IMG/VR virus record: IMGVR_UViG_3300029681_000010 | Length of the DNA stretch: 42,262 bases | Strand: one strand, 5' to 3' | Origin: a virus | In this document: positions 5,692 through 33,133 of the stretch, piece by piece | Position numbering within the stretch: position 1 is the stretch's first letter | How the letters are laid out: each line of letters opens with the position of its first letter | The notes under the pieces: model-generated | Seen by the model: only the letters and a program-made list of their open reading frames with translations | What the model was told of the DNA's origin: nothing | Databases searched by the model: none | Translations under genes and position numbers: made by a program

Positions 5692-6089
5692 CCGCTGTAA
5701 TCCTCCGCGCCGCCGAGATCCACCTGTACCCCGCTCTGCGTCTGCCGGTCGCGGACCATCGTCCACTTGTCGATCAGCGTGCCGATCGCCGTGGTGATCT
5801 GCGCCGGGTTGGCCGCTGCCAGCTTATCATCATCGGCCAGCGCCGACAGCCCCTTGCCGATGATTTCGCACACAAGATCGGACTGCTGCCCCATGTACGC
5901 CAGCACGTCCTGCGTGTCCTGTTCTTTTTTTTGTGCGCAAAGCCGCGCGATCTCCGGTTCCGCCGCCACGATCCGCTTAACGCTGTTGGGTGCCACGCCG
6001 TTGATCCGCGCCGCTGCCGCGTATGATCCCAGCGCCACATAGTCGGCCACGATTTTTTTCCGCTTGCGCGGATTAATCACCTCGGCCAC
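5688..6089 (-). CDS. terS: Terminase small subunit (putative; N-terminal HTH)
   Basis: 133 aa, translationally coupled to terL. GTG start preceded by a G8 run acting as RBS. The N-terminal RKKIVADYVALGSYAAAARINGVAPNSVKR segment is HTH-like. Confidence 0.6.
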   Translation of the reverse strand: MAEVINPRKRKKIVADYVALGSYAAAARINGVAPNSVKRIVAAEPEIARLCAQKKEQDTQDVLAYMGQQSDLVCEIIGKGLSALADDDKLAAANPAQITTAIGTLIDKWTMVRDRQTQSGVQVDLGGAEDYSG

Positions 6090-19010: not shown

Positions 19011-19418
19011 ATGGACAGTTTGCAGGATCTGTGCCGTAAGGCTCGGCACGACAAAGGGCTGACCAACGCAGACATTGCAGAGCAATCCGGCATCCCGATC
19101 TCAACAGTCAGCAACTTTTTTACGGCGGGATCAAAGGCTCCGTCCGTTTACACGGCTGGCCCTATTTGCGCCGTACTCGGCGTATCGATCAACCAATTTT
19201 TCGGCATCAACCCGCAGGATGAGCCAATTCCGGACTCAGAGCGCAAGCTGCTGCTCCAGCAGATCGCGTTTGGCAACGAGCGCTGTGCCATACTGGAGCG
19301 GTCAATCGCCACGAAAAAGAGGATCATCTTGGCTTTGTTTGCGATTGTGCTCACGGTCCTAATATACGGCGTAACGCTCGATGTACTCTGCGGGAGCATC
19401 GGATTTATCAGGAGGTAA
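19011..19418 (+). CDS. Membrane-anchored XRE-family HTH protein
   Basis: HTH segment LQDLCRKARHDKGLTNADIAEQSGIPISTVSNFF and C-terminal TM segment IILALFAIVLTVLIYGVTLDVL. Ends 4 nt before the integrase ATG. The start is uncertain (19011 or 18966; the ORF track gives 18891). Confidence 0.6.
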   Translation: MDSLQDLCRKARHDKGLTNADIAEQSGIPISTVSNFFTAGSKAPSVYTAGPICAVLGVSINQFFGINPQDEPIPDSERKLLLQQIAFGNERCAILERSIATKKRIILALFAIVLTVLIYGVTLDVLCGSIGFIRR

Positions 19419-19422
19419 CACC

Positions 19423-20739
19423 ATGCCAAAGCAGATACGCGCCGCGCTTTATGTGCGCGTCTCGAGTGAGGAGCAGGCCCGCCACGGCTACTCCCTCGCG
19501 GAGCAGCGTGCGCGGCTCCTTGCCTACGCAAAAGCCCACGGCTTAAAGGTCGTGGGCGTCTACGAGGATGCAGGCATATCTGCCCGCAAGTCGTACCGAA
19601 AACGTCCCGCGCTCCTCCGGTTGCTGGAGGATTGCAAGGCCGGCAAAATCGATACCATCTATTTTATCAAACTTGATCGCTGGTTTCGCAACGTAGCCGA
19701 TTACTACGCTGTCCAGCCAACGCTGGAAAAGGCCGGTGTAACGTGGTGCGCAACGGAGGAGAGCTATGAGACGCAGACTGCCGCCGGCCGCCTGAAGGTA
19801 AACATCATGCTGTCTGTCGCGCAAGACGAGGCCGACCGTACCAGTGAGCGGATCCGTTTTATAAACGATGGCCGCAGAGCAAACGGGATCCCAATCGGGA
19901 CAAAAGCCCCATTGGGGCTGATGATCAAAAACGGGGCTTACATCCAGACAAAGGACGCACCCGCCGTCCAAGCCATGTTTAAATACTACATCCAGACGCG
20001 CAGCGTCAACGCCACAAAAAAATATATGCTAAAGCAGTGGGGGATCGACGGCGTGTACAATACGTTTAATCGCGCCCTCCGCAACCGGCTCTATATCGGT
20101 GAGGTTTACGGTGTCCCCGATCGGATCCCGGCGCTCATCCAAAAGGCCGATTTTGATCTTGTGCAGGGCATGCTCGCAAAGCAATCCCAGCGGTGCAGCG
20201 GGGTTGAGGATTCACGCATATACCTGTATTCCGGCCTAATCTATTGTCGCGAGTGCGGAAAAACGATGCAAGCAGAGACCGTCAAGGGGACTTACACGTA
20301 TTACCGTTGCCGCACACACAACCTTGATACTACGGCTTGCCCACATACAAAACGGGTCCGCGAATCGGAACTCGAAATATACCTACTCGAGGAGCTGGAG
20401 CATATCGTCAAAACGGCCTACTCTTCCGCCAAAAAGGGGCGCGAGAGAAAGTCTCGGATTGCCCCGGCCAAGATCTTGCGCAAGCTTGATCGGCTGAAAG
20501 AGCTGTACCTCGCAGAGATGATTGATATGCCAACCTATCGCGCCGACTATGACAAATTGCAGGAGCAGCTCAACGCCGCGCAAGCTGAGACTCCAGATCC
20601 CCCAGACATAGCCAGCTTGCATGAGGCCATCGCACAGTATCCAAAGCTCTCGCGGATCGAAAAAAAAGAATTTTGGACTCGCACCATCAAGCGCATTGAC
20701 GCCGACAACAATGGCGCATTTTTTGTAACCACGCGTTAG
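19423..20739 (+). CDS. int: Large serine recombinase (phage integrase)
   Basis: Start MPKQIRAALYVRVSSEEQ (catalytic Ser context) with RBS AGGAGG. Resolvase domain, recombinase domain, zinc ribbon CRECGK...YYRCRTH and a coiled-coil C-terminus. Confidence 0.95.
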   Translation: MPKQIRAALYVRVSSEEQARHGYSLAEQRARLLAYAKAHGLKVVGVYEDAGISARKSYRKRPALLRLLEDCKAGKIDTIYFIKLDRWFRNVADYYAVQPTLEKAGVTWCATEESYETQTAAGRLKVNIMLSVAQDEADRTSERIRFINDGRRANGIPIGTKAPLGLMIKNGAYIQTKDAPAVQAMFKYYIQTRSVNATKKYMLKQWGIDGVYNTFNRALRNRLYIGEVYGVPDRIPALIQKADFDLVQGMLAKQSQRCSGVEDSRIYLYSGLIYCRECGKTMQAETVKGTYTYYRCRTHNLDTTACPHTKRVRESELEIYLLEELEHIVKTAYSSAKKGRERKSRIAPAKILRKLDRLKELYLAEMIDMPTYRADYDKLQEQLNAAQAETPDPPDIASLHEAIAQYPKLSRIEKKEFWTRTIKRIDADNNGAFFVTTR

Positions 20740-20752
20740 GCATAGTTTACAC

Positions 20753-20770
20753 TGCCGCTATATAGCGTCA
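20753..20770. other. Palindrome just 3' of the integrase gene (alternative attP or operator candidate)
   Basis: Perfect 12-bp palindrome cgctatatagcg at 20756-20767, extended imperfectly to tgccgctatatagcgtca. Confidence 0.35.
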
Positions 20771-20781
20771 ACTACGCCCAA

Positions 20782-20815
20782 CTCCCCCAGCCAAAGCGGC
20801 TGGGGGAGTTTTCTT
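20782..20815 (+). terminator. Rho-independent terminator after the integrase gene
   Basis: Stem ctcccccagcc / ggctgggggag, loop aaagc, then ttttctt. Lies between convergent genes. Confidence 0.8.
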
Positions 20816-21300
20816 CACTTCGCGATAGCGCAATAGTACGCCGCCAGTTTCGCTTTCGGTTCCGGCGCATCCTTATCCCACAAAAACGCCTTTGCCAAGT
20901 CCCCGTAAAACTCAGCCGTAAAAACGCCGTGCCGCTCCGCGACAAGGCAGTAGTCCGAGTACATCATGTTCATCGCGACCCACCAGCACAACGGGGTAAT
21001 GTGATCCCATGTCACGCCGAGGCTTTCCGCGACGCTGGTGGTCTGTTCCTTCGTCCAGTGTGCGCCGGTCGTGCCGTCAGCGTTCTCCATCTTCTCGCAC
21101 CACGCCTCTGCGTCTGCGCGGGAGAAATCGCTCACGCACTCCAGCGATTCGGCATACGCCTTAATATGCTCATAGCACTCCACCATCGCCGTGACGGCGG
21201 TCGCGCTCCGCTCGGATACCGGCATGGACATATACTCGGCCAGCCCCTTCTCAAGGCGCTCACAGTACGCTTTAACCTTGTCCTTCATGCCGCACCTCAC
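20815..21300 (-). CDS. Hypothetical protein (last gene of the int-proximal cluster)
   Basis: 161 aa. GTGA-coupled GTG at 21300, or ATG 21288 (MKDKV) with RBS GAGGTG. W/Y/C-rich, no motif recognised. Confidence 0.6.
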   Translation of the reverse strand: MRCGMKDKVKAYCERLEKGLAEYMSMPVSERSATAVTAMVECYEHIKAYAESLECVSDFSRADAEAWCEKMENADGTTGAHWTKEQTTSVAESLGVTWDHITPLCWWVAMNMMYSDYCLVAERHGVFTAEFYGDLAKAFLWDKDAPEPKAKLAAYYCAIAK

Positions 21301-21698
21301 AGCTTCCGCACGGTGACGGCGGCATTGGTCACGCTGCCAGCTGCGCTAAGCGTCAGACGCAGCGTAGCCCTCGGAGAGTACCGAAGGAGCCGTACCGCAG
21401 CGGGGAAGGAAAGCGTCACCGACGTATCCGTAGCCGCCACGGTCGCCGACGCAGTCGCGCCGGGGATTGCTACGCCGTCCTGCAGGAGCGTAGCAGTGAT
21501 CGTTCCAGCCGCCGTTGGAATCACGGTAACGGATACATCCGCGTCATAGTATCCATCCCCGTTCAGGGAAATGGCATTCCCATTCAGCGTCGCGCCGCAT
21601 CCATAGCGACGAACAACGTTGCCGAGAGGAATGTCTCCGCCAGCGGCCACAGTGGTGGGAGAGGTCATCGCGGTAAAGAGGATCGAATTGCAGCTCAT
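21297..21698 (-). CDS. BclA C-terminal-like (C1q/TNF-like jelly-roll) domain protein, stand-alone
   Basis: 133 aa. RBS AAAGGAG. ISLNGDGYYDADVSVTVIPTAAGTITATLLQDGVAIPGATAS resembles the BclA-CTD core GFYKITVIA...LTIQVNGVPVPGTGSS, as recalled. The length matches that domain. Confidence 0.45.
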   Translation of the reverse strand: MSCNSILFTAMTSPTTVAAGGDIPLGNVVRRYGCGATLNGNAISLNGDGYYDADVSVTVIPTAAGTITATLLQDGVAIPGATASATVAATDTSVTLSFPAAVRLLRYSPRATLRLTLSAAGSVTNAAVTVRKL

Positions 21699-21713
21699 AA
21701 AAATACTCCTTTC

Positions 21714-21743
21714 ACAAAAACAGGCGGGGCTTTTGCCCCGCCT
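21714..21743 (-). terminator. Rho-independent terminator or attenuator after the 199-aa gene
   Basis: Minus strand: aggcggggc / aaaa / gccccgcct, then gtttttgtg. Confidence 0.7.
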
Positions 21744-21768
21744 TACTCATGCCCAGCAGGGGCAATGC

Positions 21769-22368
21769 TCAGATGTTACCGCAGCCGCAGCCATTCATCG
21801 CAAACTGAGGCACGATGCCGAACCCGTAAGGGTTCACGCGCGGAACGCCGCACATGGCGTTCTGGAGCGTCAGCTGGTTGATCTGGTTCTGCAGGCTCTC
21901 GATCTTGTTCTGAGCCAGCGCATCAAGAATCTTCTGGGTCTGCGCGGTCGTGGTGGCATTGATGCTCGCCGTGTTGATCGCACCGTTGTAGTTCACGCCG
22001 TCGATGGCGCGAAGCGTCTCGCAGCAACACTCCTGCTGGCGGGCGAAGCCAGAAGCCGTCGCCATCTGCAGATCGCGCAGCTCACCGAGGATGTTGTAGT
22101 TGCCGTCCTTGATCGCGCCGGCATTGTCGTACGCCGCCTGACGGACTGCCGCAACAGTCTCGTTGTTCTGCCGCTCCAGCGCGGCAAAATCAGTGGCGCG
22201 CTGGACATCGCCGACCGTGGCGTTGCGATCTCGATTGCCGCCGAAGTTGCCAAAGCCGCCGCCCATCAGCGCAAGGATCGCAAAGAGCCACAGCCCCTCG
22301 CCACCAAAACCGCCGAAGCCGCCGCCGCTCACCGCCGCGTAATCAGCAGGAGACATAGAGTCGTTCAT
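21769..22368 (-). CDS. Hypothetical membrane protein with Gly/Phe-rich N-terminus, CCC motif and CGCG C-terminus
   Basis: 199 aa. RBS GGAGGG. Contains GGGFGGFGGEGLWLFAILALMGGGFGNFGG, then coiled-coil-like Q/N/A-rich sequence with QQECCCETL. Ends NGCGCGNI. Confidence 0.6.
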   Translation of the reverse strand: MNDSMSPADYAAVSGGGFGGFGGEGLWLFAILALMGGGFGNFGGNRDRNATVGDVQRATDFAALERQNNETVAAVRQAAYDNAGAIKDGNYNILGELRDLQMATASGFARQQECCCETLRAIDGVNYNGAINTASINATTTAQTQKILDALAQNKIESLQNQINQLTLQNAMCGVPRVNPYGFGIVPQFAMNGCGCGNI

Positions 22369-22416
22369 GTGTGTTCCCTCCGTTATTCATATTATTTTCA
22401 CGCGCGCTGTGAAAAT

Positions 22417-22656
22417 TCACGAAAACTGAGAAAGGATCGTCTGCGGATCCACGCCCTGAGACTGGCACATTGCATAAAATGTTTGCTGGAGATTCCCTCC
22501 ATTCAGCTGTCGGATCTGATTCAGCATCGGATTCTGATTCAGGATCTGTTGCATTGCCAGCGCAGGATTCTGTGCAGCCTGATATGCGTGATACATCTGC
22601 ACGGCACGGGATACGCCGCTATTCTGCCCGTTCAGCTGCTGCAGGATGGGATTCAT
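22417..22656 (-). CDS. Q/N-rich small protein with three NP-x-L-x-Q repeats
   Basis: 79 aa. RBS GGAGG 9 nt upstream. The start lies 38 nt inside the preceding gene, in another frame. Confidence 0.5.
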   Translation of the reverse strand: MNPILQQLNGQNSGVSRAVQMYHAYQAAQNPALAMQQILNQNPMLNQIRQLNGGNLQQTFYAMCQSQGVDPQTILSQFS

Positions 22657-22918
22657 TCAGCGCCGCCTCCAATCTTGAAATCCGTTCAGCCAGCGCCGCC
22701 AAGTCAACCGGAGGCGCGTCTACATGGGGTGCAATGTCGTAAGGCGTCGCCGTCTTGTACCCAGCTCCGTCTGTTTGGCAAAGCCACACGATCGGCGCAG
22801 TCTCGTCCAGCAACAGCTCACTGCAGTTTGGCGCCATCTGATAGGCGTTCACGCCGCCGCGCCCGTTGACGCGTACGATCTCGCGTCGCTGGTATGCGGG
22901 CGGATACCCATACATCAT
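22619..22918 (-). CDS. Hypothetical protein (first gene of the int-proximal cluster)
   Basis: 99 aa, MMYGYPPAYQRREIVRVNGRGG.... The C-terminal segment LAALAERISRLEAAL is helical. RBS GAAAGGA. Confidence 0.55.
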   Translation of the reverse strand: MMYGYPPAYQRREIVRVNGRGGVNAYQMAPNCSELLLDETAPIVWLCQTDGAGYKTATPYDIAPHVDAPPVDLAALAERISRLEAALNESHPAAAERAE

Positions 22919-22990
22919 TGGATCACGTCCTTTCTGGATCTATCGTACCCCAAATCAGCGGTTGGAAAGCGTAGAGTATCGGCATCAAAA

Positions 22991-23022
22991 GGCGCAAAAA
23001 AGGAGGGCATAAAGCCCTCCTT
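22991..23022 (-). terminator. Strong rho-independent terminator ending the long late transcript
   Basis: Minus strand: aaggagggc / tttat / gccctcctt, then ttttttgcgcc. It abuts the stop of the 84-aa gene. Confidence 0.8.
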
Positions 23023-23276
23023 CAATTTGTGCCGATGATCCCGTATGAGATCCCGTCAGCAATCTTTCCGTATGCTCTTCGTCTGCAATTTTTGATCGTG
23101 TCAGGAGAAACAAACAGATCCATCGCCACGTCTACGCAACTTCGCCCGCGCACATCGCACTCGATGATGCACGCCTCCTCCATGGGCGGCAGATCAAACG
23201 CCTTGACGTAGTCCACCGCCCGCTGAGGAGCCATTCGTGATAGCCTTGCTCTGATCTCCCTATGCTGTGCGTTCAT
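23022..23276 (-). CDS. Small sigma-70 region-4-like / LuxR-type HTH regulator
   Basis: 84 aa. EEACIIECDVRGRSCVDVAMDLFVSPDTIKNCRRRAYGKI fits the region-4 HTH pattern. RBS GGAGGGG. Confidence 0.55.
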   Translation of the reverse strand: MNAQHREIRARLSRMAPQRAVDYVKAFDLPPMEEACIIECDVRGRSCVDVAMDLFVSPDTIKNCRRRAYGKIADGISYGIIGTN

Positions 23277-23360
23277 CCATTCCCCTCCGCGCCGTGAGCC
23301 TGCGGAGCTTTCGCGGGGGAGCGGGGTCGGCGTATCGTTGCCCGCTCCCCGCCCAGAGGG

Positions 23361-26300
23361 TTAATGCCACGGAGCGTCTGCCAGCTGTTTTTCTCCGTAG
23401 CCCTTCATTCGATAGAGCGCGTCCTTCTGTGCCGTGGAGATGTTCATCTTGTTGATCGCCTCCAGCACAAACTGCTTCTTCTCGATCTTCCCGTCGCCGT
23501 CGGTATCCTCGCCCTTGACCGCGTTAAGATCCTTGTACGCCTCCGCAAAGGTTTTCTTGTCGAATCCTGCCTCGGAGCCGTAACTCTGGTACGCTTTGAC
23601 GATGGAATTCGTCGCGTCAGAAACTCCAGCGTTTTTCCAGTCGTACACCGTAGCTTTCAGCTCCGCATCTTCCGCAGACAGTCCGCCGACATTTTGCAAC
23701 GCCCGAATTACCTCTCGGCGAGAAATATTCCCGTCAGCGTATTCGTCGGCAAGATCGTCGTACGAGAATCCGTAGGACTGCTTGAATTCCTGCTGTTTAA
23801 TGACGGTCTCCGCATCCTCGCGGCTGAACCCGACGTCTTCAAGCTGTGAGAGCATATCGCTTCCACCAGCGTTCTTGATGGCGTTCTTCATGCCGGTCTT
23901 GATCTGCTTATCAGTATAGCCCTTACTGATAAGATCGGCATAAATCCGGTCGTATGCGGCCTTATCATCCTGCAATGCGTGATAGAGGATTGAGTAGTAC
24001 CGCGAGGTGTTTTTCGCGTCCGGAGCGACTCGGTAGATCATCTGCTCCATCTGATACATCGCCCAGTAACTGCCGGTCTCCTGCGCGATGCTTCGCGCCA
24101 CCGCCCAAGTGTCGCGCCCGATGTTGCCGACGGAAACGCCGAAGATCTTACTGCCAGTCACCAGAAGCTGCTTGAATGCATAGAGCGGAGTTTTCTGCCC
24201 ATCACCCTGTGCGGCCTTTGTAAACAACTGTGCCGCAGAAATGAAGTCCGAGACCGCGTCCGCATCCATGCGGGATACTGTGTAGCCCTGGAGCATGGAC
24301 TTGATGTCCTTGGCGAACGGAATCCGTCCTACGGGGTCGATGTTGTCCCACAGGTTACTGCCCAGCAGGACGCTGACGACCGTGTCGTCCTCTCCGGTTA
24401 CGCCGGTCAGAACCTCGAAGTATCTTCCCCAGTAATCCTTGTCCTTATCATCCTTCCGCGCCGCGTCGACGAGGGACTGGACAAGCGCGTTTACGCCGTC
24501 GGTAACCAGCAACGCGATGCTCGTCCGAGCAAACTGCTTCAGAGCCGCGCTCTTCTTGCTGGGATTGGTTTCATAACGCCACGCGTCATAGGCCCTGAGG
24601 AGCATATTCAGGGACTTCATCGGTTCGCCCATAAATGCGGTGGCCTGTTTCGTCAGGCCGTTCCCGCTGCGCATGATCTGCGTGCGCTGGAGGATACCGT
24701 CAACGACCTGCGACTGGTCGATTACGTCGGAAAACACCTCTGCCGTGCGCGTGTAAAACTCCTCGCTCCCGACTTCATAGCGCCCTTCCTTCTGCACGGT
24801 ATACTCACACGCGTTCCAGATCTTGCCCCACGTCACAGCGTCGGCCTTTGCCGCCGCCGCACTGGATGCGTCGCTGAGCTTGTCCATAAAGGTCTGATCC
24901 GCGCCGTTGAGGATGCCCTTCATGATCGTGTACTGCCCGGCCTGATCAAATCCGGACGAATCCTTGATGGCGGCGATGCCCGCATACTGCTTAGCCTTTT
25001 TCCAGCCATTCCCCTTGGTGGGGGCTTTGACAAGCCCCTTGGCCATGTCGCTGGGATCGATGATCGCCGCCGCACGGAAGAATGCCGTGGGCTGCTGGAG
25101 CACCACGCGGGCGTTCATGCCGACGCTTGCGGCCTTCGTCCTGCCGACAAGCTTCTCGATCATGCGCGTGATCGGCTCATCATCGTGGGCGATGCCGTTC
25201 TGCACGTCACTCATGAGGTTTCGCCAGTACTTCAGCGCCTGTTCGCCGTAAACATCCGTCAGCACATTCTTGACGTTCTTGCCGGTAAGGTTCCCGGCAG
25301 AGTCGCGGTAGCGATAGTTAAAAAGACGGTTGATGTCCTCCATCGGTTCGAGCATTGTGCTGTAGGTAATCATGTCGCTTGCGTTTTTCGTGAAAACGTC
25401 AAACACTCCGCCAAGATCCAGCGCGTTGCTGGCGTTCTCGTTCAGGGCTTTCGCGCTGCCCATGTTGCGGATCTCGCGCGGCATATTTTCGCCGCGTTCA
25501 GCGTTCTGCACGATTGCCTCTCGCGCCGACTTGATCGGCCAATAATGCTCCTCGGTAAACTTGTTGTACCCATACACGGCCATGCTGGACTCGTTGCCCC
25601 ACTTGGCAAGCATGGTAGACGCGATTTTCTGCAGTCCCTTTGCGACCTTGATCTGCTCATCCGTCAGGACATCAGTGATCTGAGCCACATCGCTTGCAGT
25701 GAGAGGAATGCTCTTCGTGCCGCGCTCGATGGCCGGCAACTTGCCGTCGCGCTTGATGTAGGGCTGTATAACGCCGCCGACAGAGAGGTGCTGCATCGAG
25801 TGCTTCCCGCGATTCGCGAGGTTGTAAAGGTTCATGATCTGGTCATTCGTCAGCGTGATCGTCTGCCCGCCCTCGGTCGTAAACGTATGCCGCTCGTTCC
25901 GCTGTTTATAGACCTCGCGGCTCATGAACTTCTCCGTCAGCTTCGCGACCTCTGCGACCCTGCGGTTCTGCGTGTCCTCCGCATTCCGCAGAGCGCGGAA
26001 CACGTCCAGACCAGCATCACCATATGCGTTGAAAAATGTGCGCGGATCGTAAAGGCTGAGCGCAGCCTTCTTGTTCGTCCGTTTGCGGCTACTTACGCCG
26101 CTCCTGAGATCGTTTGCCCACTGGGAGATAAACATATACTTCCCGCTTGCAAGTGCCTTGTCGTAGCTTGTGATGGTCGTCTCGATGCCCTTGATGGCCT
26201 TCCAGATGACATTCAGCTGGGCGGTATTCATCTCGTCGATGCGCTGATTGCCCAGCTGGACGAGTTGATCGATAAACCCGCTCGTCCCGTCACCGCCAAA

Positions 26301-29300
26301 CAAAGCCGGATCGATAACAAAGTTCGGATCATTGGAGAGGATCGAGTCGTACGCCTCGCGCAGTCTGATCGCATCCTGCGTGCGCTTGGTGGGTGTCCCG
26401 TTGTTCCCGCTCCGCAGCCTGCCGTTTTCGTCGTAGCTTCTGGCGCTCTCCATATTGATGCTACGCAAGAGTGCGGCAACGGGCATCCGCAGGCTCTCCG
26501 GGATGTGTTGCTTATCCGTTGGGCGGAGCAACTTCCGAGAGAGCGTTTCGGTGTGCCGCGAGATCTTGGCTCGGATCTCTCTGGCCTTTCGCCTTTCCGC
26601 TCCGGCCTTCGTTCGCTCGGCATAAGCTGTGCGCATCTGCTTGATCTTCTCGTCGCGACCAGCCCGCGTCTTGCTGAGCAGATCCTTCAGGTGTGCGATC
26701 TCCTGCTCCTTCCGGTCTGCGTAGGTAGGTCTTGTCTGCCGGACATCGTCGCTGATCATGCCCTCAATCAGCGCATTGCCAAGTGCCTTTATCGCAATGT
26801 CGCGGTACTCATCATAAGGATTCGACCAAATGCTGTCGATATCCTCCAACACCTCGCCCATGCGCGTAAGCTGATCCGCCGGATGCACGATGTTCTCCGG
26901 GAAATAGCCGCCGCCAAACAGTTCTGTCAGCTCGTGATATGCCACGTCAACAGGGAGGCCGCCGTCCTTTGCAAACTTAATGTCACGGTGTTCCTTCTTC
27001 CATGCCAAAAAATCCGGGATGGATCCGTCATCCGTATACGCCAGCTTGACAGACTTGAGATGTTTTTGGATCTCCAGCAAGTCCTCGCCGCCCTCCTCAA
27101 GCACACGGGAATTCTGGATGATCTTTTCTGCCACATACTCTGCATAAGCGTGGAGATCTGTGTCAGGGACATCCTGCGATAGAAGAGCCTTGCCGATGTT
27201 CTCCATATCCGTCTTGATCTCGCTGTACTTCGTCGAGCTGTCGAAATCACTGATAAGCCGATTGCCGAGTTTCTTCAGATCTCCCTCGCGGAAGCTCGGC
27301 ATAGAGGGCTTGACTTCCGCTTTCCACCGTGCCACCTGCCGCTCAAGCGATTTCACGCGCGTCTTGAGCCGGTCGCGCTCCTTCTTGATGTCGCGCATTT
27401 CCGAATCGATCTGCGTCTGAGACTTGAGCTGAAATCTCGCGTTGTCCACACTGTTTACCGCATTCAACCTACCTGTTTCGTCTCCCGCAGGATACTCGAT
27501 AACGCGAACGCCAGCATCCGATAAAGACTGGCGAATTTCCGCACTGGAATTATCCGGAATTACTGCCGCAAGCACTTCATTAAACCCTACGGCTCTTTGC
27601 GGTTTCGCTTCGAAGTAGCCCGTCGGAAGTTCAGCCGCCGCTCGGAACACCTCGCGGATTTCGCGGGCGGTGCTTTCGCTGATGGAATACCCCTCCTGCG
27701 AGAACGCCCGTCGGATGGCTGCTTCTGTCTGCTTACCCTGCGCGGCCTGCATCATCACGTCGCCGATGATCTGCATCTCATCGAACTGGTTGTCCGAGTG
27801 CGCCTTGTTCTCGCGCATGACCGCCCGCGTGGCCTGCTCGATGCGCTTTTCCACTGCGTCCACGTCGGCCTTGTACTGCTCCGTGTCCACATTGCCGAGC
27901 CTGCCGCTCGCGGCCTTCACCGCGTCGATGCTCTGGAAGTCCTCCGTGCTGACCGCCTGCATGGCCTTCGCCGACGCGCCGAACGTCTGCCCGCCGCGCT
28001 CTGCCTGCGTCTCGGTCATGGCGCGCACGATGTTCTCCAGCGTGTACCCCCAGTGCAGCTGTGAAAAGCTCCGCCGGTTGCCGCTCCGGTCGAAGCGCTC
28101 CGAACCGTTGTAAATGCCCGGCTCGCCCAGCACGCCCTCCAGCTGCGGCAGCAGCCATGCCTTCACGGCCTCAGCGCTCGCCGCTTCATGGAGCTTGTCG
28201 CTGGTCGCCCACCGGTCGATCTCGCTCGTCGTCGCGCCCTGATCCTGATAGTATTCCCACGCGTTTCGGACGAAATTCTCCACCGTGTATGTGTGGACAT
28301 TGTTCTCCATGAAGTAGTTGATCCGCTTCTCCTTCTGCTCCGGTTTCCGGTCGAGGAATCTGCGGTGCTGCTCTTCGTAGCTGTCGCGGATGATCTGCCG
28401 CACCGTATCCTCGATCTCCCGCACCGGCTGATAGTCGCCCGTCTCCATGCTGGCTTCGATGCTGCCCAGCTCCTGCACGCCGATTTTCTGCACCAGCTTC
28501 GCCAGTGCGTCATTGCCGTATCGGTTGAACTCCTTTGCCTGCATGACCGGCTCCAGCGTTTTCCCATGATCGGCCAGATAGGCCGCGCGGATGCTGTCAT
28601 CCCGCGCGAGCTTGTCCGCCAGCTCCGGCGCGCTCATACTGCTCTCTTCGACAACGCCTGCGCGCTGCAATGCGCTGTCATTGCGGAATACGCCGCCCGC
28701 GACCTTCTCGCTCAGCCTCGCGAGTCGTTTTTCCACGGCGCGCATTCGGTCGTAGTTCACTGGATATTCCACCGCCGGGGCCGTCGGCGTATACGCGTCG
28801 CCGCCGTAGATCTTGTTCCGGCTGTCCGTCTGCGGGTCGATGCTCTCGCGTCCGAACACGATGGAGATCGGCCCGTACATGCTGTGTCCCTGCGCCGCCT
28901 TGACGACCGCGATGCTCGGCATCGGCAGTCCGCCCAACTTCATCGCATCCCGCAGGTTCTGTTCCGTCAGGTTGTGGACGGCCACGAGATCCTTTGTCTG
29001 TTCTACCGGTGCTCGCAGGGAGAATTTTTCTTTTACTCCCCGCTGATCCTGTGCGCCTGCTCCAGAACTTCCTCGTCCGTTACCGTCTCCTTTGACAGTA
29101 GATACTCGACCATATCCATCTGCTGAACTTCCTTCTTCAGAAGCAAACACACTACCATAGCTTTTCCTTTGCTTATCTCGAAGTGTTTTAAACACCCGAT
29201 TAAGAGTTTCTGCGCCTCTGTTAAAACCATAATCGAACTCCTTCCTGGCTGCCATAAGCGTCTGATGGTCAGATAATGCGGCTTTACCCCCAGAAGCATA

Positions 29301-32084
29301 CAGCGGCGTAGCTTCCGTACCGTCTCCGATCCCATACAACGCGAACACCTGTACGCCTTTTTCATCAGCATACAGCCATTTCGTTGATTCGTCAAGATAC
29401 TGTTCGGAACTTTCAATCTCTTCCGTCATCCGCCGGTTCAGAAGATTCCATTCCGAGCGGTTGAGATCCGGCCGCCAGTATTTCTTGCGGATCTGCATTT
29501 TCGAGGTGCCATCGGCGTTTGTTTCCGCTTCATCGCTTGTATCGGCGACCGTCTCTGCCGCCTTGTCATACGCCGTCTGCCAAAGGTCTGCGATCTTCTG
29601 CAGCTCCGCGAAGTTTTTGCCGTAAGCCTCCTGCGCTGCCTTATTGCGCTTGGATGCAACAAGGCCCTTGACCTTGGAGATAAACTCCTTCAGCCGGTCA
29701 AGGAGGGTCTTCGCCGCCGTTCGGTTTTTTGCCGCGAACCGCTCAAAGAGGTCAGCATCATTGAGCATCTCTGCTGTGAAATCCGCCGCGATCTCGTCCA
29801 TGGCCTCTTCCTGCGTCAGCGTCACGCCAGCCTCGCGGCTTGCGTCGCGGTAGCGCTCTACCATATGCGCCGCCGTGTCATCCCCCAGCTCGTTCGCGCG
29901 GTATGCCATCACCGCGTCGCGATACGCGTGGTATTCCGTGGGCGCGGCATCCTGCATCCGGTGCGTCACCTCATGCGCCGCGACAAAGGTGAGCGGGTTG
30001 TCCGCGTCCGCCGCAAGCTGGATCGTGTTTGTTTTACTGACGTACTTGCCGTTCGCCGCGCCGCCCTGTACCTGTGGGACGATCTCAATCCTTACGCCCA
30101 TGTCGCTTGCCAAAGCCCCCAGTACGCGTGCCGTTCCGGCGTCTTTGTTGGCAAGATTCCGGCTGTAATCGTTGTCAGCAAGCCCGGCATCACCGGAGCG
30201 CGTAACCAGTTTCACCCCGGCCTTTTCCCGCGCAAGGCTGCTCGCCGCGTCCGCAAGCCCCGCCTGATATGCCGCCGTCTGTACGGATGGGGGGATATAC
30301 TTTGCCGCGTCGCTCTTCACGTCGGTCAGCGCTTTCCCGCTCAGCCCCGCCTGATACATCGAGGTAAAGCCCGTGCGGAGGCGCGGGTTGCTCCTCACGG
30401 CCTGATTCTGCTGTACCTGCGTCCACGCGGCGCTGCCGTTTTCACCGAGTCCGGTGTCGGAGCGGAAACTCTGAAGCCCGTCTGCCGCGCCCTGATTCCA
30501 CGCAGCGGTGCGCTGCGCGTCCGTCAGATCGTCCGCAAACGTCCCACGTTTCTCGGTTACGACACCGGCGCGGCCATCCTCATACGCCTCCTGCATCCCC
30601 AGCAAATAGCGGCTTACATCTCCCCCGGCATAGGAGTCGACAAAGACGTTCGCCGCCCCGGCATTGGCCGCGCGGTTAATTGCGCCCTCATAAAGGTCTG
30701 CGGTATTCCGATCCGCAAACGTTACCTTGTCAGGGGAGACGATGTCGCCGGTTTCCATCTCGATCTGCCCGCCTTTTACGATGGACTTAATCGCAGACTC
30801 ACTGCCGCCGACCGTGGTCTTCCCGTCCTCCTGTGTTTGATACGTCCCCTTTACACCGGAGCGGTCTCTCACCATCTGCTGCGCCTGTTCATAGCGCTTG
30901 CTCTGCTTCTCGATCTGCTTGTTATAGACGCTGTCTGCGGCTTTCCCAGCCGCCATCTGTGCGCCGGAAAGAATGCCTCCGACGGCAAACCCTTCCGCAA
31001 ACTCCTGTGCGGATGTCACGGGGTTAAAGATCGCGCGGTCGTCCGAAAGTGACGCGATAGGATTGTCTGCGCCGTACACAACGTTCTGCATTGTGCGCCC
31101 GACAGGCCCTTGCCAGATTTCCTCCATGCCCTCCTCTGCGGCGCTGCGCAGGAGATTCTTCACGCTGAATCCCTTCGGAACGTTTTGGATACCGCCGCCA
31201 ATCTCAATCACCGAGTTGAGCAGACTTGTGCCGATGGCGTAGTTCATGGCCTCGGACGTGCTTGCTCCGTCGGACAGGGCTTCCTGATAATCCGACCCGA
31301 CCTCGGACGCAAACGCCGTCCAGTAATTTTTAGACGTCAGCGTGTCGCGGAAGCCCTTGCCAAGCGTACTGAGGATGCCGGAGCTTTCGACAACGGATGC
31401 CCCAAGATTTGCAAGTGCCTCTGTCGACGTTGCCACGCCGTTGACAATGGGTGCGACGGCTGCCACTCCGGCAGTCATTGCCATCGGAATCGCGCCGCCA
31501 ACGCCGTATGCAATGTCACCGCCATAAGATGCCGCTTTCTTCGCGGCCTTCCCGGCGATGGTGGAGTCGTTGATCTTGGAAACCTCCTCCTCGCGCTCCG
31601 CGTCAAGGTATGCCTTATTTTGCTCGATACCCACAAGACCGTTCTCGCCGAGGAATTTCCAGTCAGGCCGTCCGTGGTACAGCGCGTTAAAAAGCCCGCT
31701 TCCCTTGGTGTTCGCCCCCTGAAAGATCGTGTCTATTACAGACGTCACGGCGTCCTCGGCCATCGCTCCCGTAGCCGCAGAGATGCTTGCCGCCCCAGCC
31801 AGAAGCGTTTTGCCGAGGTTTTCAAAATACTTCCAGCCGTTAAACTTGCCCTTGCTCTCCTGCCGCTCCTTCGCGGGGTCGATCCGCTGCGACGGGAGGC
31901 TGACGGTGGGCTGCGCCGCTTCGCGCTCTTTTCGCGCCTGGATCCGCTGAGACAAAAGCTCCTGCGCAAGAGCGGCCTGTCCGCTCATGCTCTGCGTGCT
32001 GGTTTGCGTCGCCGCAGACTGCGGATCCTCGCGCTTCTTCTTACGCTGCTGCAGCAGCTCCACCGCCAGATCGTTGTTGGTCAT
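23361..32084 (-). CDS. Giant multidomain virion/ejection-type protein (about 2,907 aa) with zincin HExxH motif; polyvalent-protein-like
   Basis: Uninterrupted 8.7-kb ORF. The start is set at MTNNDLAV (ATG 32084, RBS GGGAGG). HEVTH lies at nt 29961-29975. Residues about 110-400 contain Gly/Ala-rich hydrophobic segments. The EF-hand-like loop DTDGDGKIEKKQ is at nt 23472-23507. The remainder is unassigned. Confidence 0.8.
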   Translation of the reverse strand: MTNNDLAVELLQQRKKKREDPQSAATQTSTQSMSGQAALAQELLSQRIQARKEREAAQPTVSLPSQRIDPAKERQESKGKFNGWKYFENLGKTLLAGAASISAATGAMAEDAVTSVIDTIFQGANTKGSGLFNALYHGRPDWKFLGENGLVGIEQNKAYLDAEREEEVSKINDSTIAGKAAKKAASYGGDIAYGVGGAIPMAMTAGVAAVAPIVNGVATSTEALANLGASVVESSGILSTLGKGFRDTLTSKNYWTAFASEVGSDYQEALSDGASTSEAMNYAIGTSLLNSVIEIGGGIQNVPKGFSVKNLLRSAAEEGMEEIWQGPVGRTMQNVVYGADNPIASLSDDRAIFNPVTSAQEFAEGFAVGGILSGAQMAAGKAADSVYNKQIEKQSKRYEQAQQMVRDRSGVKGTYQTQEDGKTTVGGSESAIKSIVKGGQIEMETGDIVSPDKVTFADRNTADLYEGAINRAANAGAANVFVDSYAGGDVSRYLLGMQEAYEDGRAGVVTEKRGTFADDLTDAQRTAAWNQGAADGLQSFRSDTGLGENGSAAWTQVQQNQAVRSNPRLRTGFTSMYQAGLSGKALTDVKSDAAKYIPPSVQTAAYQAGLADAASSLAREKAGVKLVTRSGDAGLADNDYSRNLANKDAGTARVLGALASDMGVRIEIVPQVQGGAANGKYVSKTNTIQLAADADNPLTFVAAHEVTHRMQDAAPTEYHAYRDAVMAYRANELGDDTAAHMVERYRDASREAGVTLTQEEAMDEIAADFTAEMLNDADLFERFAAKNRTAAKTLLDRLKEFISKVKGLVASKRNKAAQEAYGKNFAELQKIADLWQTAYDKAAETVADTSDEAETNADGTSKMQIRKKYWRPDLNRSEWNLLNRRMTEEIESSEQYLDESTKWLYADEKGVQVFALYGIGDGTEATPLYASGGKAALSDHQTLMAARKEFDYGFNRGAETLNRVFKTLRDKQRKSYGSVFASEEGSSADGYGRVSTVKGDGNGRGSSGAGAQDQRGVKEKFSLRAPVEQTKDLVAVHNLTEQNLRDAMKLGGLPMPSIAVVKAAQGHSMYGPISIVFGRESIDPQTDSRNKIYGGDAYTPTAPAVEYPVNYDRMRAVEKRLARLSEKVAGGVFRNDSALQRAGVVEESSMSAPELADKLARDDSIRAAYLADHGKTLEPVMQAKEFNRYGNDALAKLVQKIGVQELGSIEASMETGDYQPVREIEDTVRQIIRDSYEEQHRRFLDRKPEQKEKRINYFMENNVHTYTVENFVRNAWEYYQDQGATTSEIDRWATSDKLHEAASAEAVKAWLLPQLEGVLGEPGIYNGSERFDRSGNRRSFSQLHWGYTLENIVRAMTETQAERGGQTFGASAKAMQAVSTEDFQSIDAVKAASGRLGNVDTEQYKADVDAVEKRIEQATRAVMRENKAHSDNQFDEMQIIGDVMMQAAQGKQTEAAIRRAFSQEGYSISESTAREIREVFRAAAELPTGYFEAKPQRAVGFNEVLAAVIPDNSSAEIRQSLSDAGVRVIEYPAGDETGRLNAVNSVDNARFQLKSQTQIDSEMRDIKKERDRLKTRVKSLERQVARWKAEVKPSMPSFREGDLKKLGNRLISDFDSSTKYSEIKTDMENIGKALLSQDVPDTDLHAYAEYVAEKIIQNSRVLEEGGEDLLEIQKHLKSVKLAYTDDGSIPDFLAWKKEHRDIKFAKDGGLPVDVAYHELTELFGGGYFPENIVHPADQLTRMGEVLEDIDSIWSNPYDEYRDIAIKALGNALIEGMISDDVRQTRPTYADRKEQEIAHLKDLLSKTRAGRDEKIKQMRTAYAERTKAGAERRKAREIRAKISRHTETLSRKLLRPTDKQHIPESLRMPVAALLRSINMESARSYDENGRLRSGNNGTPTKRTQDAIRLREAYDSILSNDPNFVIDPALFGGDGTSGFIDQLVQLGNQRIDEMNTAQLNVIWKAIKGIETTITSYDKALASGKYMFISQWANDLRSGVSSRKRTNKKAALSLYDPRTFFNAYGDAGLDVFRALRNAEDTQNRRVAEVAKLTEKFMSREVYKQRNERHTFTTEGGQTITLTNDQIMNLYNLANRGKHSMQHLSVGGVIQPYIKRDGKLPAIERGTKSIPLTASDVAQITDVLTDEQIKVAKGLQKIASTMLAKWGNESSMAVYGYNKFTEEHYWPIKSAREAIVQNAERGENMPREIRNMGSAKALNENASNALDLGGVFDVFTKNASDMITYSTMLEPMEDINRLFNYRYRDSAGNLTGKNVKNVLTDVYGEQALKYWRNLMSDVQNGIAHDDEPITRMIEKLVGRTKAASVGMNARVVLQQPTAFFRAAAIIDPSDMAKGLVKAPTKGNGWKKAKQYAGIAAIKDSSGFDQAGQYTIMKGILNGADQTFMDKLSDASSAAAAKADAVTWGKIWNACEYTVQKEGRYEVGSEEFYTRTAEVFSDVIDQSQVVDGILQRTQIMRSGNGLTKQATAFMGEPMKSLNMLLRAYDAWRYETNPSKKSAALKQFARTSIALLVTDGVNALVQSLVDAARKDDKDKDYWGRYFEVLTGVTGEDDTVVSVLLGSNLWDNIDPVGRIPFAKDIKSMLQGYTVSRMDADAVSDFISAAQLFTKAAQGDGQKTPLYAFKQLLVTGSKIFGVSVGNIGRDTWAVARSIAQETGSYWAMYQMEQMIYRVAPDAKNTSRYYSILYHALQDDKAAYDRIYADLISKGYTDKQIKTGMKNAIKNAGGSDMLSQLEDVGFSREDAETVIKQQEFKQSYGFSYDDLADEYADGNISRREVIRALQNVGGLSAEDAELKATVYDWKNAGVSDATNSIVKAYQSYGSEAGFDKKTFAEAYKDLNAVKGEDTDGDGKIEKKQFVLEAINKMNISTAQKDALYRMKGYGEKQLADAPWH

Positions 32085-32104
32085 AGTTGCCTCCCTCGCT
32101 CGCG

Positions 32105-33133
32105 TTACTTCTTCTTGTGGAACGTGATTGTCTTCTTGCTGTTGTCCCACGTTGCGGTCGCAGTTCCGTTCTGGAGCATCTTAATCAGCTCAGTTTCACC
32201 GTATCGGCTTCCGCCTTCAAGCTTGATCCATCCGTTACCGGATCGATTTGTGATGGTATACTCGTTGATCGGCCTATAGCCGCTCTCATATGCCGCCTGA
32301 GTCTGAGCGCCCCAAATGCCGTCCTGCGTGAGACCAGCCGCCATCTGGATCTGCTTGATCTGATCGGACGAGTACCCGTGGGTGTCGTAGCTCTTGCTGG
32401 ATCTGCGAGAGCTGGACGAACCACTGCGGCTAGAACTGCTTGCCGCCGCCTTCTGAGCCGCAAGCTGAGCCTGCTCCATTGCCATCTGCTGGTTAAACTG
32501 CCTGACGTTCTCGTCATACTGTTTTTGCCACTGCGCGTCTGAGATCTGATCCCTGTAGTCCTGATAGGCGTAGCTTTTTGCGTCGCCGTATCGGCTGTAA
32601 TCAAGCTGCCGCTCGGCATCGTACCGATTCGCGGCGTAATCGCGCTGGTTTTGCCAGTCGCTCATCTTATCCCGATGCTCTCCGTACTCCTTCGAGTACC
32701 TGTCCGCGAGGAGGGAGTACTGCGTCTTGAGATCGTCGCCCTCCGCGTTATAACGATCCAGAGCCATCTGATACAGCTCCGGCACAACGTCGTTGAGGCT
32801 CTGCAGATACGCGTTATACTGCTGCTGCCCGGCGCTTTGGCTGTATGTCGAGCCATACCCGCCGGTAAGCGCCGCCGCCTGTCCCATCGTATCCTGCATG
32901 GCCTGCTTGCCCTGCTGGACGTATCGATCCTTGTACTGCTGATAGAGCGCGTCGCCGTTCAGGTCGTACTTAAATTTTTCGCGGTTCTGCAGTTTGCTGA
33001 GCGCGTCCTGCATCTGCTGGCCATACGTCCCGCCGTTCCACTCGCCCGGCTTCCGTGCGTCCGCCTGCTGGAGCTGATTGTACAGATCCCTGACGCGCTC
33101 GCTCTCCTCATAGTCTTTGTAGCTAAACGCCAC
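32105..33133 (-). CDS. Q/Y/D-rich protein with Ser-rich linker and partial peptidoglycan-binding-like C-terminal motif
   Basis: 342 aa. The C-terminal IKQIQMAAGLTQDGIWGAQTQAAYESGY resembles the second half of a PG_binding_1 repeat. Lies between the endolysin and the giant gene. Confidence 0.6.
   Translation of the reverse strand: MAFSYKDYEESERVRDLYNQLQQADARKPGEWNGGTYGQQMQDALSKLQNREKFKYDLNGDALYQQYKDRYVQQGKQAMQDTMGQAAALTGGYGSTYSQSAGQQQYNAYLQSLNDVVPELYQMALDRYNAEGDDLKTQYSLLADRYSKEYGEHRDKMSDWQNQRDYAANRYDAERQLDYSRYGDAKSYAYQDYRDQISDAQWQKQYDENVRQFNQQMAMEQAQLAAQKAAASSSSRSGSSSSRRSSKSYDTHGYSSDQIKQIQMAAGLTQDGIWGAQTQAAYESGYRPINEYTITNRSGNGWIKLEGGSRYGETELIKMLQNGTATATWDNSKKTITFHKKK

Follow-up and report, generated by a model that had tools for sequence, protein, structure and literature searches.

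A helix-turn-helix gene, a terminator and five small genes form a conserved module at the late-region end of gut Clostridia phages

What is the role of a block of small, tightly packed genes that stands between the end of a phage late transcript and an integrase gene, and do these genes belong together at all? This question is raised by a 42,262-nucleotide (nt) stretch of viral DNA, IMG/VR virus record IMGVR_UViG_3300029681_000010 (hereafter, the window), in which a gene for an 84-amino-acid (aa) helix-turn-helix (HTH) protein is followed by a strong terminator and then by a cassette of five genes. The small genes are named here by the aa lengths of their products: g84 for the HTH gene, and g99, g79, g199, g133 and g161 for the cassette. 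An original prediction, made from the sequence without database searches, had regarded the cassette as a set of unknowns under the control of a sigma-like gene and, because of its insulation and its position next to the integrase gene and attachment site, as typical of lysogenic-conversion or accessory modules. The positions that it gave for the HTH gene, the terminators and the five packed genes were confirmed by the list of open reading frames (ORFs) and by RNA folding, all six ORFs being on the minus strand, and the good ribosome-binding sites that it had described were seen as a Shine-Dalgarno-like sequence upstream of every start.

The IMG/VR database was scanned with g199, and the neighbouring genes in the resulting 80 viral loci were identified by tblastn. 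It was found that g99 and g133 were each present in 62 of these loci, in a constant order and down to approximately 35% identity. A further 48 loci were added from GTDB genomes and Clostridium perfringens phages, and ORFs were labelled with family hidden Markov models. Among the 136 loci with g199, 120 contained g99, 108 contained g79 and 114 contained g133; in a further 10, the g133 slot was filled by an alternative protein. The order g99-g79-g199-g133-(terminal helical gene) was invariant. The terminal slot was occupied by a 97-99-aa family in 54 loci, by the DUF7841 family in 38 and by a 174-aa family in 15. Homologues of all six window ORFs were found in conserved order in many diverged loci, and no fusion proteins joining cassette families were found. 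Taken together, these results indicate that the HTH gene, the terminator and the five genes make up a single portable module that phages have conserved, which recurs in the same order in more than 100 gut Clostridia phages and therefore is widespread rather than cargo peculiar to the integrase end of this prophage. The original prediction had allowed that the five genes might not co-occur outside this genome; they do so in a fixed order.

The simplest objection is that there is no functional unit here but only small ORFs without relation to one another, or false gene calls in DNA rich in G+C, that happen to be adjacent. Long antisense ORFs of 206 and 416 aa overlap the cassette region, and therefore the length of an ORF says little by itself in this DNA. 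However, every minus-strand cassette ORF has hundreds to thousands of homologues, in an order that outlasts extensive divergence, and two of the proteins (g99 and g161) gave confident AlphaFold2 (AF2) models. The co-occurrence refutes this explanation, to which we assign practically no weight.

We are highly confident of a typical layout that consists of the HTH gene, the terminator T1, g99, g79, g199, an attenuator, g133, a variable helical protein and a terminator, of its location at the late-region end in many phages of Clostridia, invariably on the late strand, and of its dispensability. In mid-size phages, the cassette follows the holins and endolysin and precedes an SNF2 helicase or recombination genes, all on a single strand, and in several loci the endolysin gene was located about 1.8 kb upstream. 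In contigs of 76 to 147 kb, the order was tail-fibre genes, cassette, holin and amidase, without the HTH gene and without the upstream hairpin. The cassette was within 1-9 kb of lysis genes, whereas an integrase homologue was detected by tblastn in just 9 of the 80 cassette-bearing viral loci. Therefore, although the cassette does adjoin the integrase gene and the phage attachment site (attP) in the window, as the original prediction had emphasized, the constant association is with the tail-fibre/lysis end of the late region and not with the integrase or att. Because the late-region end adjoins attP in a temperate phage of standard layout, the integrase neighbour in the window is explained. 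Downstream of the cassette, the SNF2 helicase genes of two loci (L053, 8193-10955, and L079, 8074-9096) contain LAGLIDADG or intein insertions.

The cassette is also present in cultivable phages of C. perfringens. The isolates CPD1 and XP41-N3 have g99-like, g79-like and g199-like genes, and CPQ4, 17DYC, HMD-PC1 and PMQ04 match this stretch at 84-94% DNA identity. In contrast, the closely related phiCP39-O, phiCP26F and phiCP13O lack g99-, g79- and g199-like genes, have an anti-repressor gene in their place and share only the downstream part of the query. The presence of the cassette in CPD1-type phages and its absence from such close relatives indicate that it is dispensable. No integrase annotation was found in the 12-kb stretches examined of the cassette-bearing C. 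perfringens phages, and a literature search on phage names returned a genome announcement only. In CPD1, an HNH endonuclease-like gene (CPD1_038, 5182-5805 of locus L087) has been inserted so that it separates the g79-like gene from the g199-like gene; in XP41-N3 this site contains no gene, and CPQ4 lacks a match to that part of CPD1.

The hosts named on genome contigs include Oscillospiraceae and Oscillibacter (80% identity to the window g199), Acutalibacteraceae, the isolate Ruminococcus flavefaciens FD-1, Lachnospiraceae, Christensenellales, Erysipelotrichaceae, Mogibacterium and Bulleidia. Eight cassette contigs (L098, L099, L101, L105, L116, L117, L128 and L130) were binned to metagenome-assembled genomes of Alistipes, Bacteroidaceae, Prevotella or Treponema; most of these contigs are phage-sized and probably binned in error, although L130 lies on a Treponema-labelled contig of 359 kb. 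The R. flavefaciens FD-1 locus (L123, 6764-8103) has a reduced cassette consisting only of a g199-like protein and a 174-aa protein, near a serine recombinase, and the genes upstream of it are on the opposite strand, so that it would need a promoter of its own. Four phages (L142 to L145) with a serine integrase 44% identical to that of the window have a much more divergent cassette that is also convergent with the integrase gene; their g199 is about 270 aa in length, and there is an additional gap of about 440 nt ahead of the DUF7841 gene.

Of the 127 loci in which sufficient sequence precedes the cassette, at least 96 have the HTH gene immediately before it; this number is too low, as g99 ORFs that had been extended too far hid some HTH genes. 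The gap between the two was 200 nt or less in 68 loci (median 96 nt), and the median HTH length was 79 aa (range 62 to 110). This synteny fits the earlier suggestion of dedicated control. Taken singly, g84 gave only a sub-threshold match to GerE (E-value 0.0039, 17.2 bits relative to a cut-off of 23.5) and a match to SigM residues 117-181 (E-value 0.027). The HTH family was therefore considered as a whole, using jackhmmer with seven seeds that included g84, which yielded 23 to 108 ORFs per seed in the fetched loci and 106 loci in total. Among 46 diverse members, Sigma70_r4 was matched by 19, GerE by 12 and Sigma70_r4_2 by 12, with a best E-value of 2.5e-9. The family profile matched GerE (1fse, 5e-7) and SigF region 4 (2e-6) in the PDB, as well as LuxR-type regulators and region 4 of SigA and of extracytoplasmic function sigma factors; overall, the likeness to GerE, SigF region 4 and UPF0122/YlxM lay between E-values of 2e-7 and 1e-5, and the family resembles GerE in size and in having a single HTH domain. 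There was no match to Sigma70_r2 (region 2) in g84 or among the 25 families listed for the 46 relatives. Because g84 is 84 aa in length, aligns over region 4 only and lacks region 2, it is not a sigma factor, and so the sigma-like regulator of the original prediction stands as region-4/LuxR-like at the level of the family. Judged by its sequence, the g84 family is a stand-alone region-4/LuxR-type HTH protein that is part of the module. We know of no GerE-like protein that has been described in a fixed position before a terminator and an effector operon.

The hairpin T1 has a 10-bp G+C-rich stem and a 5-nt loop and is followed by UUUUUUGCGCCUUUUG, which includes a U-run. Its centroid structure had a folding energy of -18.5 kcal/mol (z -4.2), and none of 200 shuffles folded equally well; T1 was missing from the list of a simple terminator scan. 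A hairpin scan revealed no minus-strand terminator as strong as T1 in positions 41876-23022, and therefore T1 ends the long transcript that runs through the tail, lysis, polyvalent-protein and HTH genes, in agreement with the original prediction. In relatives, a hairpin with an 8-16-bp stem and a T-run was present within 55 nt after the HTH gene in 60 of 92 distinct loci under strict criteria, which missed further loci (for example, L005) solely owing to longer loops. The stems were wholly different among clades, with compensatory changes inside clades. The internal attenuator-like hairpin T2 is likewise conserved in position: of 42 distinct diverged loci, 26 had a hairpin and T-run in the g199-g133 gap, and their stems were unrelated in sequence. 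The ribosome-binding site of g133 is immediately 3′ of T2. A third hairpin after the last cassette gene was also found in relatives; in the window this is T3, at which the original prediction had placed the convergent end of the cluster. T3 is indeed shared and folds on both strands, but because its U-tract is on the plus strand only, T3 is mainly the integrase terminator. Translation-coupled attenuation at T1, where the hairpin lies over the HTH stop codon, was considered as a general mechanism and rejected: it would apply to the clade of the window only, as the hairpin was at or before the stop codon in 8 of 60 loci and its median start was at +14 nt.

Table 1. Positions of the module and of adjoining features in the window.
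Feature	Position	Strand	Description
g84, stand-alone sigma-70-region-4/LuxR(GerE)-type HTH	23022-23276	-	84 aa; last gene of the long late transcript, putative cassette regulator
T1, intrinsic terminator hairpin	22991-23022	-	Starts at the HTH stop codon; cassette 72 nt further on
g99, first cassette gene	22619-22918	-	99 aa; family phrog_21718
g79, small Gln/Asn-rich protein	22417-22656	-	79 aa; overlaps g99 by 38 nt
g199, core protein	21769-22368	-	199 aa; phrog_16490, E-value 6e-14
T2, attenuator-like terminator between g199 and g133	21722-21743	-	9-bp stem with 8 GC pairs, U-run; dG -24.2 kcal/mol, z -4.5
g133, probable TNF/C1q-like jelly-roll protein (type of the BclA C-terminal domain) that stands alone	21297-21698	-	133 aa
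g161, variable terminal position, DUF7841	20815-21300 (GTG, 161 aa) or 20815-21288 (ATG)	-	All-alpha
T3, 13-bp bidirectional hairpin	20780-20810	both	z -5.4 (minus), -6.6 (plus); common to the cassette and the convergent integrase gene
attP crossover region	20750-20762		From alignment to integrated copies L082 and L083
Large serine recombinase (integrase)	19381-20739	+	Resolvase 1.2e-30, Zn_ribbon_recom 2.9e-14; convergent with the cassette

The attP site was located by comparison with two metagenome scaffolds (L082 and L083) in which the same cassette lies beside host genes (clpP, a haloacid dehalogenase-type hydrolase, a cupin and RelA_SpoT). Homology to the window was lost at about 20755/20756, between the integrase stop codon and T3, and therefore the window represents the excised or circular form. 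The cassette ends about 60 bp from attP, and in the integrated copies it is the final element of the prophage, with host DNA next; similarly, two unrelated prophages end with the cassette, a few kb away from host groEL or fusA. A sigma-70-like match (TTGACG-16-TAAACT, 20771-20744, minus strand) spans the attP crossover and would be split by integration. The large serine recombinase itself is a neighbour that is outside the module.

This location in the interval between lysis genes and att, as the last prophage element before host DNA, is what might be expected of a lysogenic-conversion or moron module, which would be transcribed from the prophage under its own regulator and benefit the lysogen through the cell surface, superinfection exclusion or sporulation. 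The insulation by terminators, the dedicated HTH gene and the presence/absence polymorphism among close relatives (CPD1-type versus phiCP39-O-type) are also in keeping with such a module, and a membrane protein, as g199 is suggested below to be, could serve as an exclusion factor. However, the same cassette is found where no integrase was seen nearby and within late operons between tail fibres and holin, and the HTH protein is encoded on the late transcript. A scan of the window found no sigma-70-type promoter upstream of g84 or g99, and no recognizable constitutive promoter was found. The G+C content was 0.58-0.60 at 21-23 kb, relative to 0.53-0.64 over the whole window, and so the cassette does not deviate in composition. 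A scan of the six proteins against PADLOC-DB 2.0 gave just a match of g79 to PDC-S57 (E-value 0.0035, 15 bits) and no defence-system assignment. A sporulation-specific role is unlikely given that the hosts include R. flavefaciens FD-1, which to our knowledge does not form spores. Morons resemble this cassette in its position in this prophage, its delimitation by terminators and its patchy distribution, but differ in that the present unit is a conserved multi-gene cassette in hundreds of phages. Thus, the insulation and integrase-side position emphasized in the original prediction hold, but the late-region linkage, the promoter scan and the ordinary G+C content speak against the conversion reading, which we regard as unlikely.

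The proteins themselves were analysed by profile and structure searches. The AF2 model of g99 (mean predicted local distance difference test score, pLDDT, 84.9) has a Tyr/Pro-rich N-tail, a small β domain (approximately residues 15-61) and a C-terminal helix (residues 73-89). A Foldseek search with this model found no fold match in the PDB (best E-value 0.84), whereas 18 matches with E-values of 1e-3 or less were obtained in BFVD, all to uncharacterized proteins of uncultured sipho-, myo- and podoviruses with automatic 'zipper' names. The g99 family comprises 1,674 clusters at 50% identity, the best 150 of which are 95-193 aa in length. A homologue of g79 is present in phages CPD1 and XP41-N3 (E-value 5e-9), and g79 had no family or structure match in Pfam, NCBIfam or a PDB sequence search. 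The idea that g79 is an STI1/ubiquilin-like holdase for the hydrophobic segment of g199 found no support in the Pfam or PDB searches and was dropped.

In the core protein g199, an acidic N-tail is followed by a short hydrophobic segment with Gly on its flanks (GLWLFAILALMGGGF). Further features are a coiled-coil region, a variable helical middle, an invariant Cys that is part of a CCC motif, a C-terminal helix that is nearly invariant (NTTAQTQKILDALAQNKIESLQ) and a tail with CGCG. On average over the family, the N-tail has 3.8 D/E residues versus 0.9 K/R, the hydrophobic core is approximately 12-15 residues in length, and there are 7.4 Cys residues. More than 5,268 relatives were found (more than 5,000 clusters at 90% identity), none of them informatively named, and the g199 profile matched only generic coiled coils in the PDB and no relative. 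The partner proteins of g199 have no recognizable signal peptide, as read from their sequences. No cassette protein matched a holin, spanin, XhlA/BhlA or other lysis family in Pfam, the PHROG 'lysis' category or NCBIfam, and none significantly matched a tail PHROG family; the NCBIfam scan of the six proteins gave nothing useful.

The original prediction had recognized no function in any of the five proteins, a statement that must be modified for g161 and g133. The g161 protein matched Pfam DUF7841 (PF25223) with an E-value of 2e-23 and 83.3 bits, well above the curated cut-off of 25.2, and PF25223 was present in all of the 120 listed among its 346 relatives; a literature search on DUF7841 found no paper. 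The AF2 model of g161 (pLDDT 94.6) has seven helices and, as for g99, no fold match in the PDB by Foldseek (best E-value 1.5), and a PDB sequence search also gave no relatives. Gene callers on contigs with identical proteins agreed with the ORFs described here except for g161, the start of which they placed at the ATG at 21288, and so its true length is probably 157 aa. The g161 protein had no detectable relation by hhalign to the 97-99-aa or 174-aa terminal proteins of other loci. The former (for example, L050, 7313-7612, and L045, 7051-7344) have a weak Rubrerythrin match (E-value about 0.002), and the latter (for example, L076, 7608-8132) have a phiCP39-O homologue, gp45 (L137), annotated as 'contains ferritin domain'; phiCP39-O keeps this 174-aa-type protein although the remaining cassette is missing.

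The g133 protein matched BclA_C (PF18573) over its full length with an E-value of 2.5e-7 and 31.1 bits, which is below the curated cut-off of 38 bits. The g133 family profile matched BclA in the PDB (2z5w, 1.7e-5; also 3twi and 1wck) and F-BclA-CTD (9h38, 0.0037) over its full length, whereas a PDB search with the single sequence gave no relatives. By these profile matches, g133 is probably a tumour necrosis factor (TNF)/C1q-like protein. Domains of the BclA_C type occur in exosporium and endospore-appendage proteins (bioRxiv 10.1101/2025.02.11.637640). The g133 protein thus resembles the BclA and ExsF (BxpB) exosporium nap proteins and the F-type endospore appendage tip proteins of Bacillus, and it is similar to ExsF in standing alone, at about 130-150 aa, with Cys-rich partner proteins. 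It differs from BclA in being phage-encoded and in lacking a collagen-like stalk: there was no Collagen match in Pfam, no exosporium-leader match in NCBIfam and no GXY run in the sequence. Many g133 homologues have an N-terminal Cys and a CC/CCC motif. A 125-aa protein of CPD1 had no detectable relation to g133 by hhalign. A link to sporulation was considered because of the spore-coat flavour of the GerE (g84), BclA_C (g133) and Rubrerythrin (99-aa protein) matches and was rejected: GerE is merely the Pfam name of a LuxR-type HTH, and the hosts extend to the Ruminococcus isolate mentioned above. The N-terminus of g199, which we took on impression only to resemble YjcZ proteins, is counted under the same rejected link.

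A protein of this type could also belong to the virion, and a second alternative is that the cassette encodes an optional fibre or decoration, with g199 as the shaft, g133 as the TNF/C1q-like head, g99 as an adaptor, and g79 and the terminal protein as assembly helpers. Heads of the BclA_C type cap fibres (bioRxiv 10.1101/2025.02.11.637640). The cysteines of g199 and of many g133 homologues could cross-link the two proteins, the cassette is co-oriented with the late genes everywhere and, in large phages, follows the tail-fibre genes with no terminator between them; dispensability and exchangeability are typical of side fibres as well. Conversely, a Gly-flanked hydrophobic N-terminus such as that of g199 is odd for a fibre, a regulator and a strong terminator ahead of a fibre operon would be unusual, the g99 family is found in contigs labelled sipho-, myo- and podovirus, and neither the tail PHROG searches nor a search for fusions to fibre proteins gave a positive result. 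We consider a virion accessory improbable, about as much so as a conversion module.

The explanation that we prefer, with slightly less than even confidence in it as a whole, is that the cassette is a dispensable late operon gated by its own regulator, the products of which assemble on a membrane-anchored coiled-coil protein. The cassette would be a late or 'very late' unit of the lytic cycle. The HTH protein would be the final product of the late transcript, which terminates at T1, and would then turn the cassette on, either by activation of a promoter overlapping T1, which is possible, or by read-through of T1. As the g133 ribosome-binding site directly follows T2, g133 and g161 would depend on read-through and be made at a lower dosage, such that T2 would set g99, g79 and g199 in excess over g133 and the terminal protein. 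The g199 protein may be a single-pass membrane-anchored, Cys-rich coiled-coil scaffold, with the acidic N-tail probably outside and the large C-terminal domain probably cytoplasmic, on which the partners would assemble, g133 presumably as a trimer and g99 by way of its C-terminal helix. The complex may then work on the cell envelope as infection ends, assisting in lysis, egress or envelope remodelling, rather than serving as a lysogenic-conversion factor. Regarding the parts of this proposal, gating by the regulator, as suggested by the gene arrangement, has an even chance of being right, whereas an envelope-directed late function is doubtful.

Several observations weigh against this proposal. 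The timing of the cassette and the role of the HTH protein are read from synteny alone, and T1 could simply be a leaky terminator, with the HTH protein regulating something else. The distance from the T-run to the first ribosome-binding site is 25-70 nt, and although a TAnAAT-like (-10-like) hexamer is present there in most loci, it was not significant relative to composition-matched shuffles (mean p about 0.38). A canonical holin and an amidase are already encoded in the window, and the lysis-family searches in Pfam, PHROG and NCBIfam described above brought up no resemblance of a cassette protein to a known lysis protein. The topology of g199 is drawn only from charge bias, and a transmembrane helix would normally be longer than its hydrophobic core. 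Fibres and extracellular proteins are where TNF/C1q-like heads are typically found, and the cassettes of large phages sit among tail-fibre genes, both of which favour a virion fibre. The interval from lysis genes to att in temperate phages is a classic site of conversion genes.

Some likenesses to well-known phage systems bear on the proposed late operon. The succession of a regulator gene, a terminator and putatively controlled genes at the very end of the genome resembles lambda Q-tR′ or Mu C-mom; however, there is no homology to Q, the Mor/C family was matched by only 2 of the 46 HTH members, and the likeness is one of gene arrangement alone. The g199 protein, with its single N-terminal hydrophobic segment and a domain of about 150 aa that contains a coiled coil and conserved Cys, encoded beside lysis genes, is reminiscent of class III holins (T4 T) and i-spanins (lambda Rz). 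Unlike these, g199 has no sequence or profile similarity to holin or spanin families, the same phages have canonical holins, and its charge bias suggests the opposite topology, with the C-terminal domain inside. A bolder idea, which we regard as rather improbable, is that the cassette builds a new phage apparatus: a membrane-anchored, Cys-cross-linked g199 stalk with a g133 TNF/C1q-like trimer as cap and g99 as joint. The region-4-like regulator would turn this apparatus on at the very end of infection, and it would reshape or break through the Gram-positive envelope, or else tag lysing cells or the material released. Its design logic would be like that of the exosporium BclA-ExsF nap or of a TNF ligand.

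As a whole, the window is a temperate siphovirus-like phage of a G+C-rich gut Clostridia host. On the minus strand, from about 41.9 to 23.0 kb, the genes encode tail proteins (DUF859/Gp10_C), a collagen-like fibre, a protein-tyrosine-phosphatase-like protein, a Phage_holin_4_1 holin, an Amidase_2/PG_binding_1 endolysin, a 342-aa protein and a 2,929-aa polyvalent protein (PBECR5), followed by g84. No tRNAs were found in the window, and an Rfam search of 20600-23500 gave no family. The phosphatase-like protein (642 aa, 34412-36340, minus strand; Y_phosphatase3 of the tyrosine-phosphatase family, E-value 4e-25) lies between the collagen-like tail fibre and the holin, which is an unusual site for such a domain. 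The polyvalent protein (23361-32150, minus strand) has a PBECR5 nuclease domain and an HExxH motif, and contigs with an identical g199 protein and the same gene order have other polyvalent versions (MuF_C, 3,072 aa; ART-PolyVal, 2,627 aa), which indicates a recombination break just upstream of the HTH gene. Between the polyvalent and HTH genes (23277-23362, minus strand) there is a very G+C-rich 86-nt hairpin without a U-tract (-44.8 kcal/mol, z -2.4).

The phages of gut Clostridia are full of unannotated genes, and in this instance six anonymous ORFs have become a defined unit with its own putative regulator and dosage control, including two predicted folds (g99 and g161) that have no match among solved structures. 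The cultivable C. perfringens phages and their close relatives without the cassette are a natural plus/minus pair. Should the cassette prove to be a late envelope-directed apparatus, Gram-positive phage egress would gain a new component, and an apparatus of the bolder kind outlined above would represent a novel functional class among the late genes of phages, found in thousands of Clostridia phages. Should it be expressed in lysogens, it would be a conversion module that is very common among gut Firmicutes. In both cases, the position beside the integrase gene is no guide to the function of the cassette.

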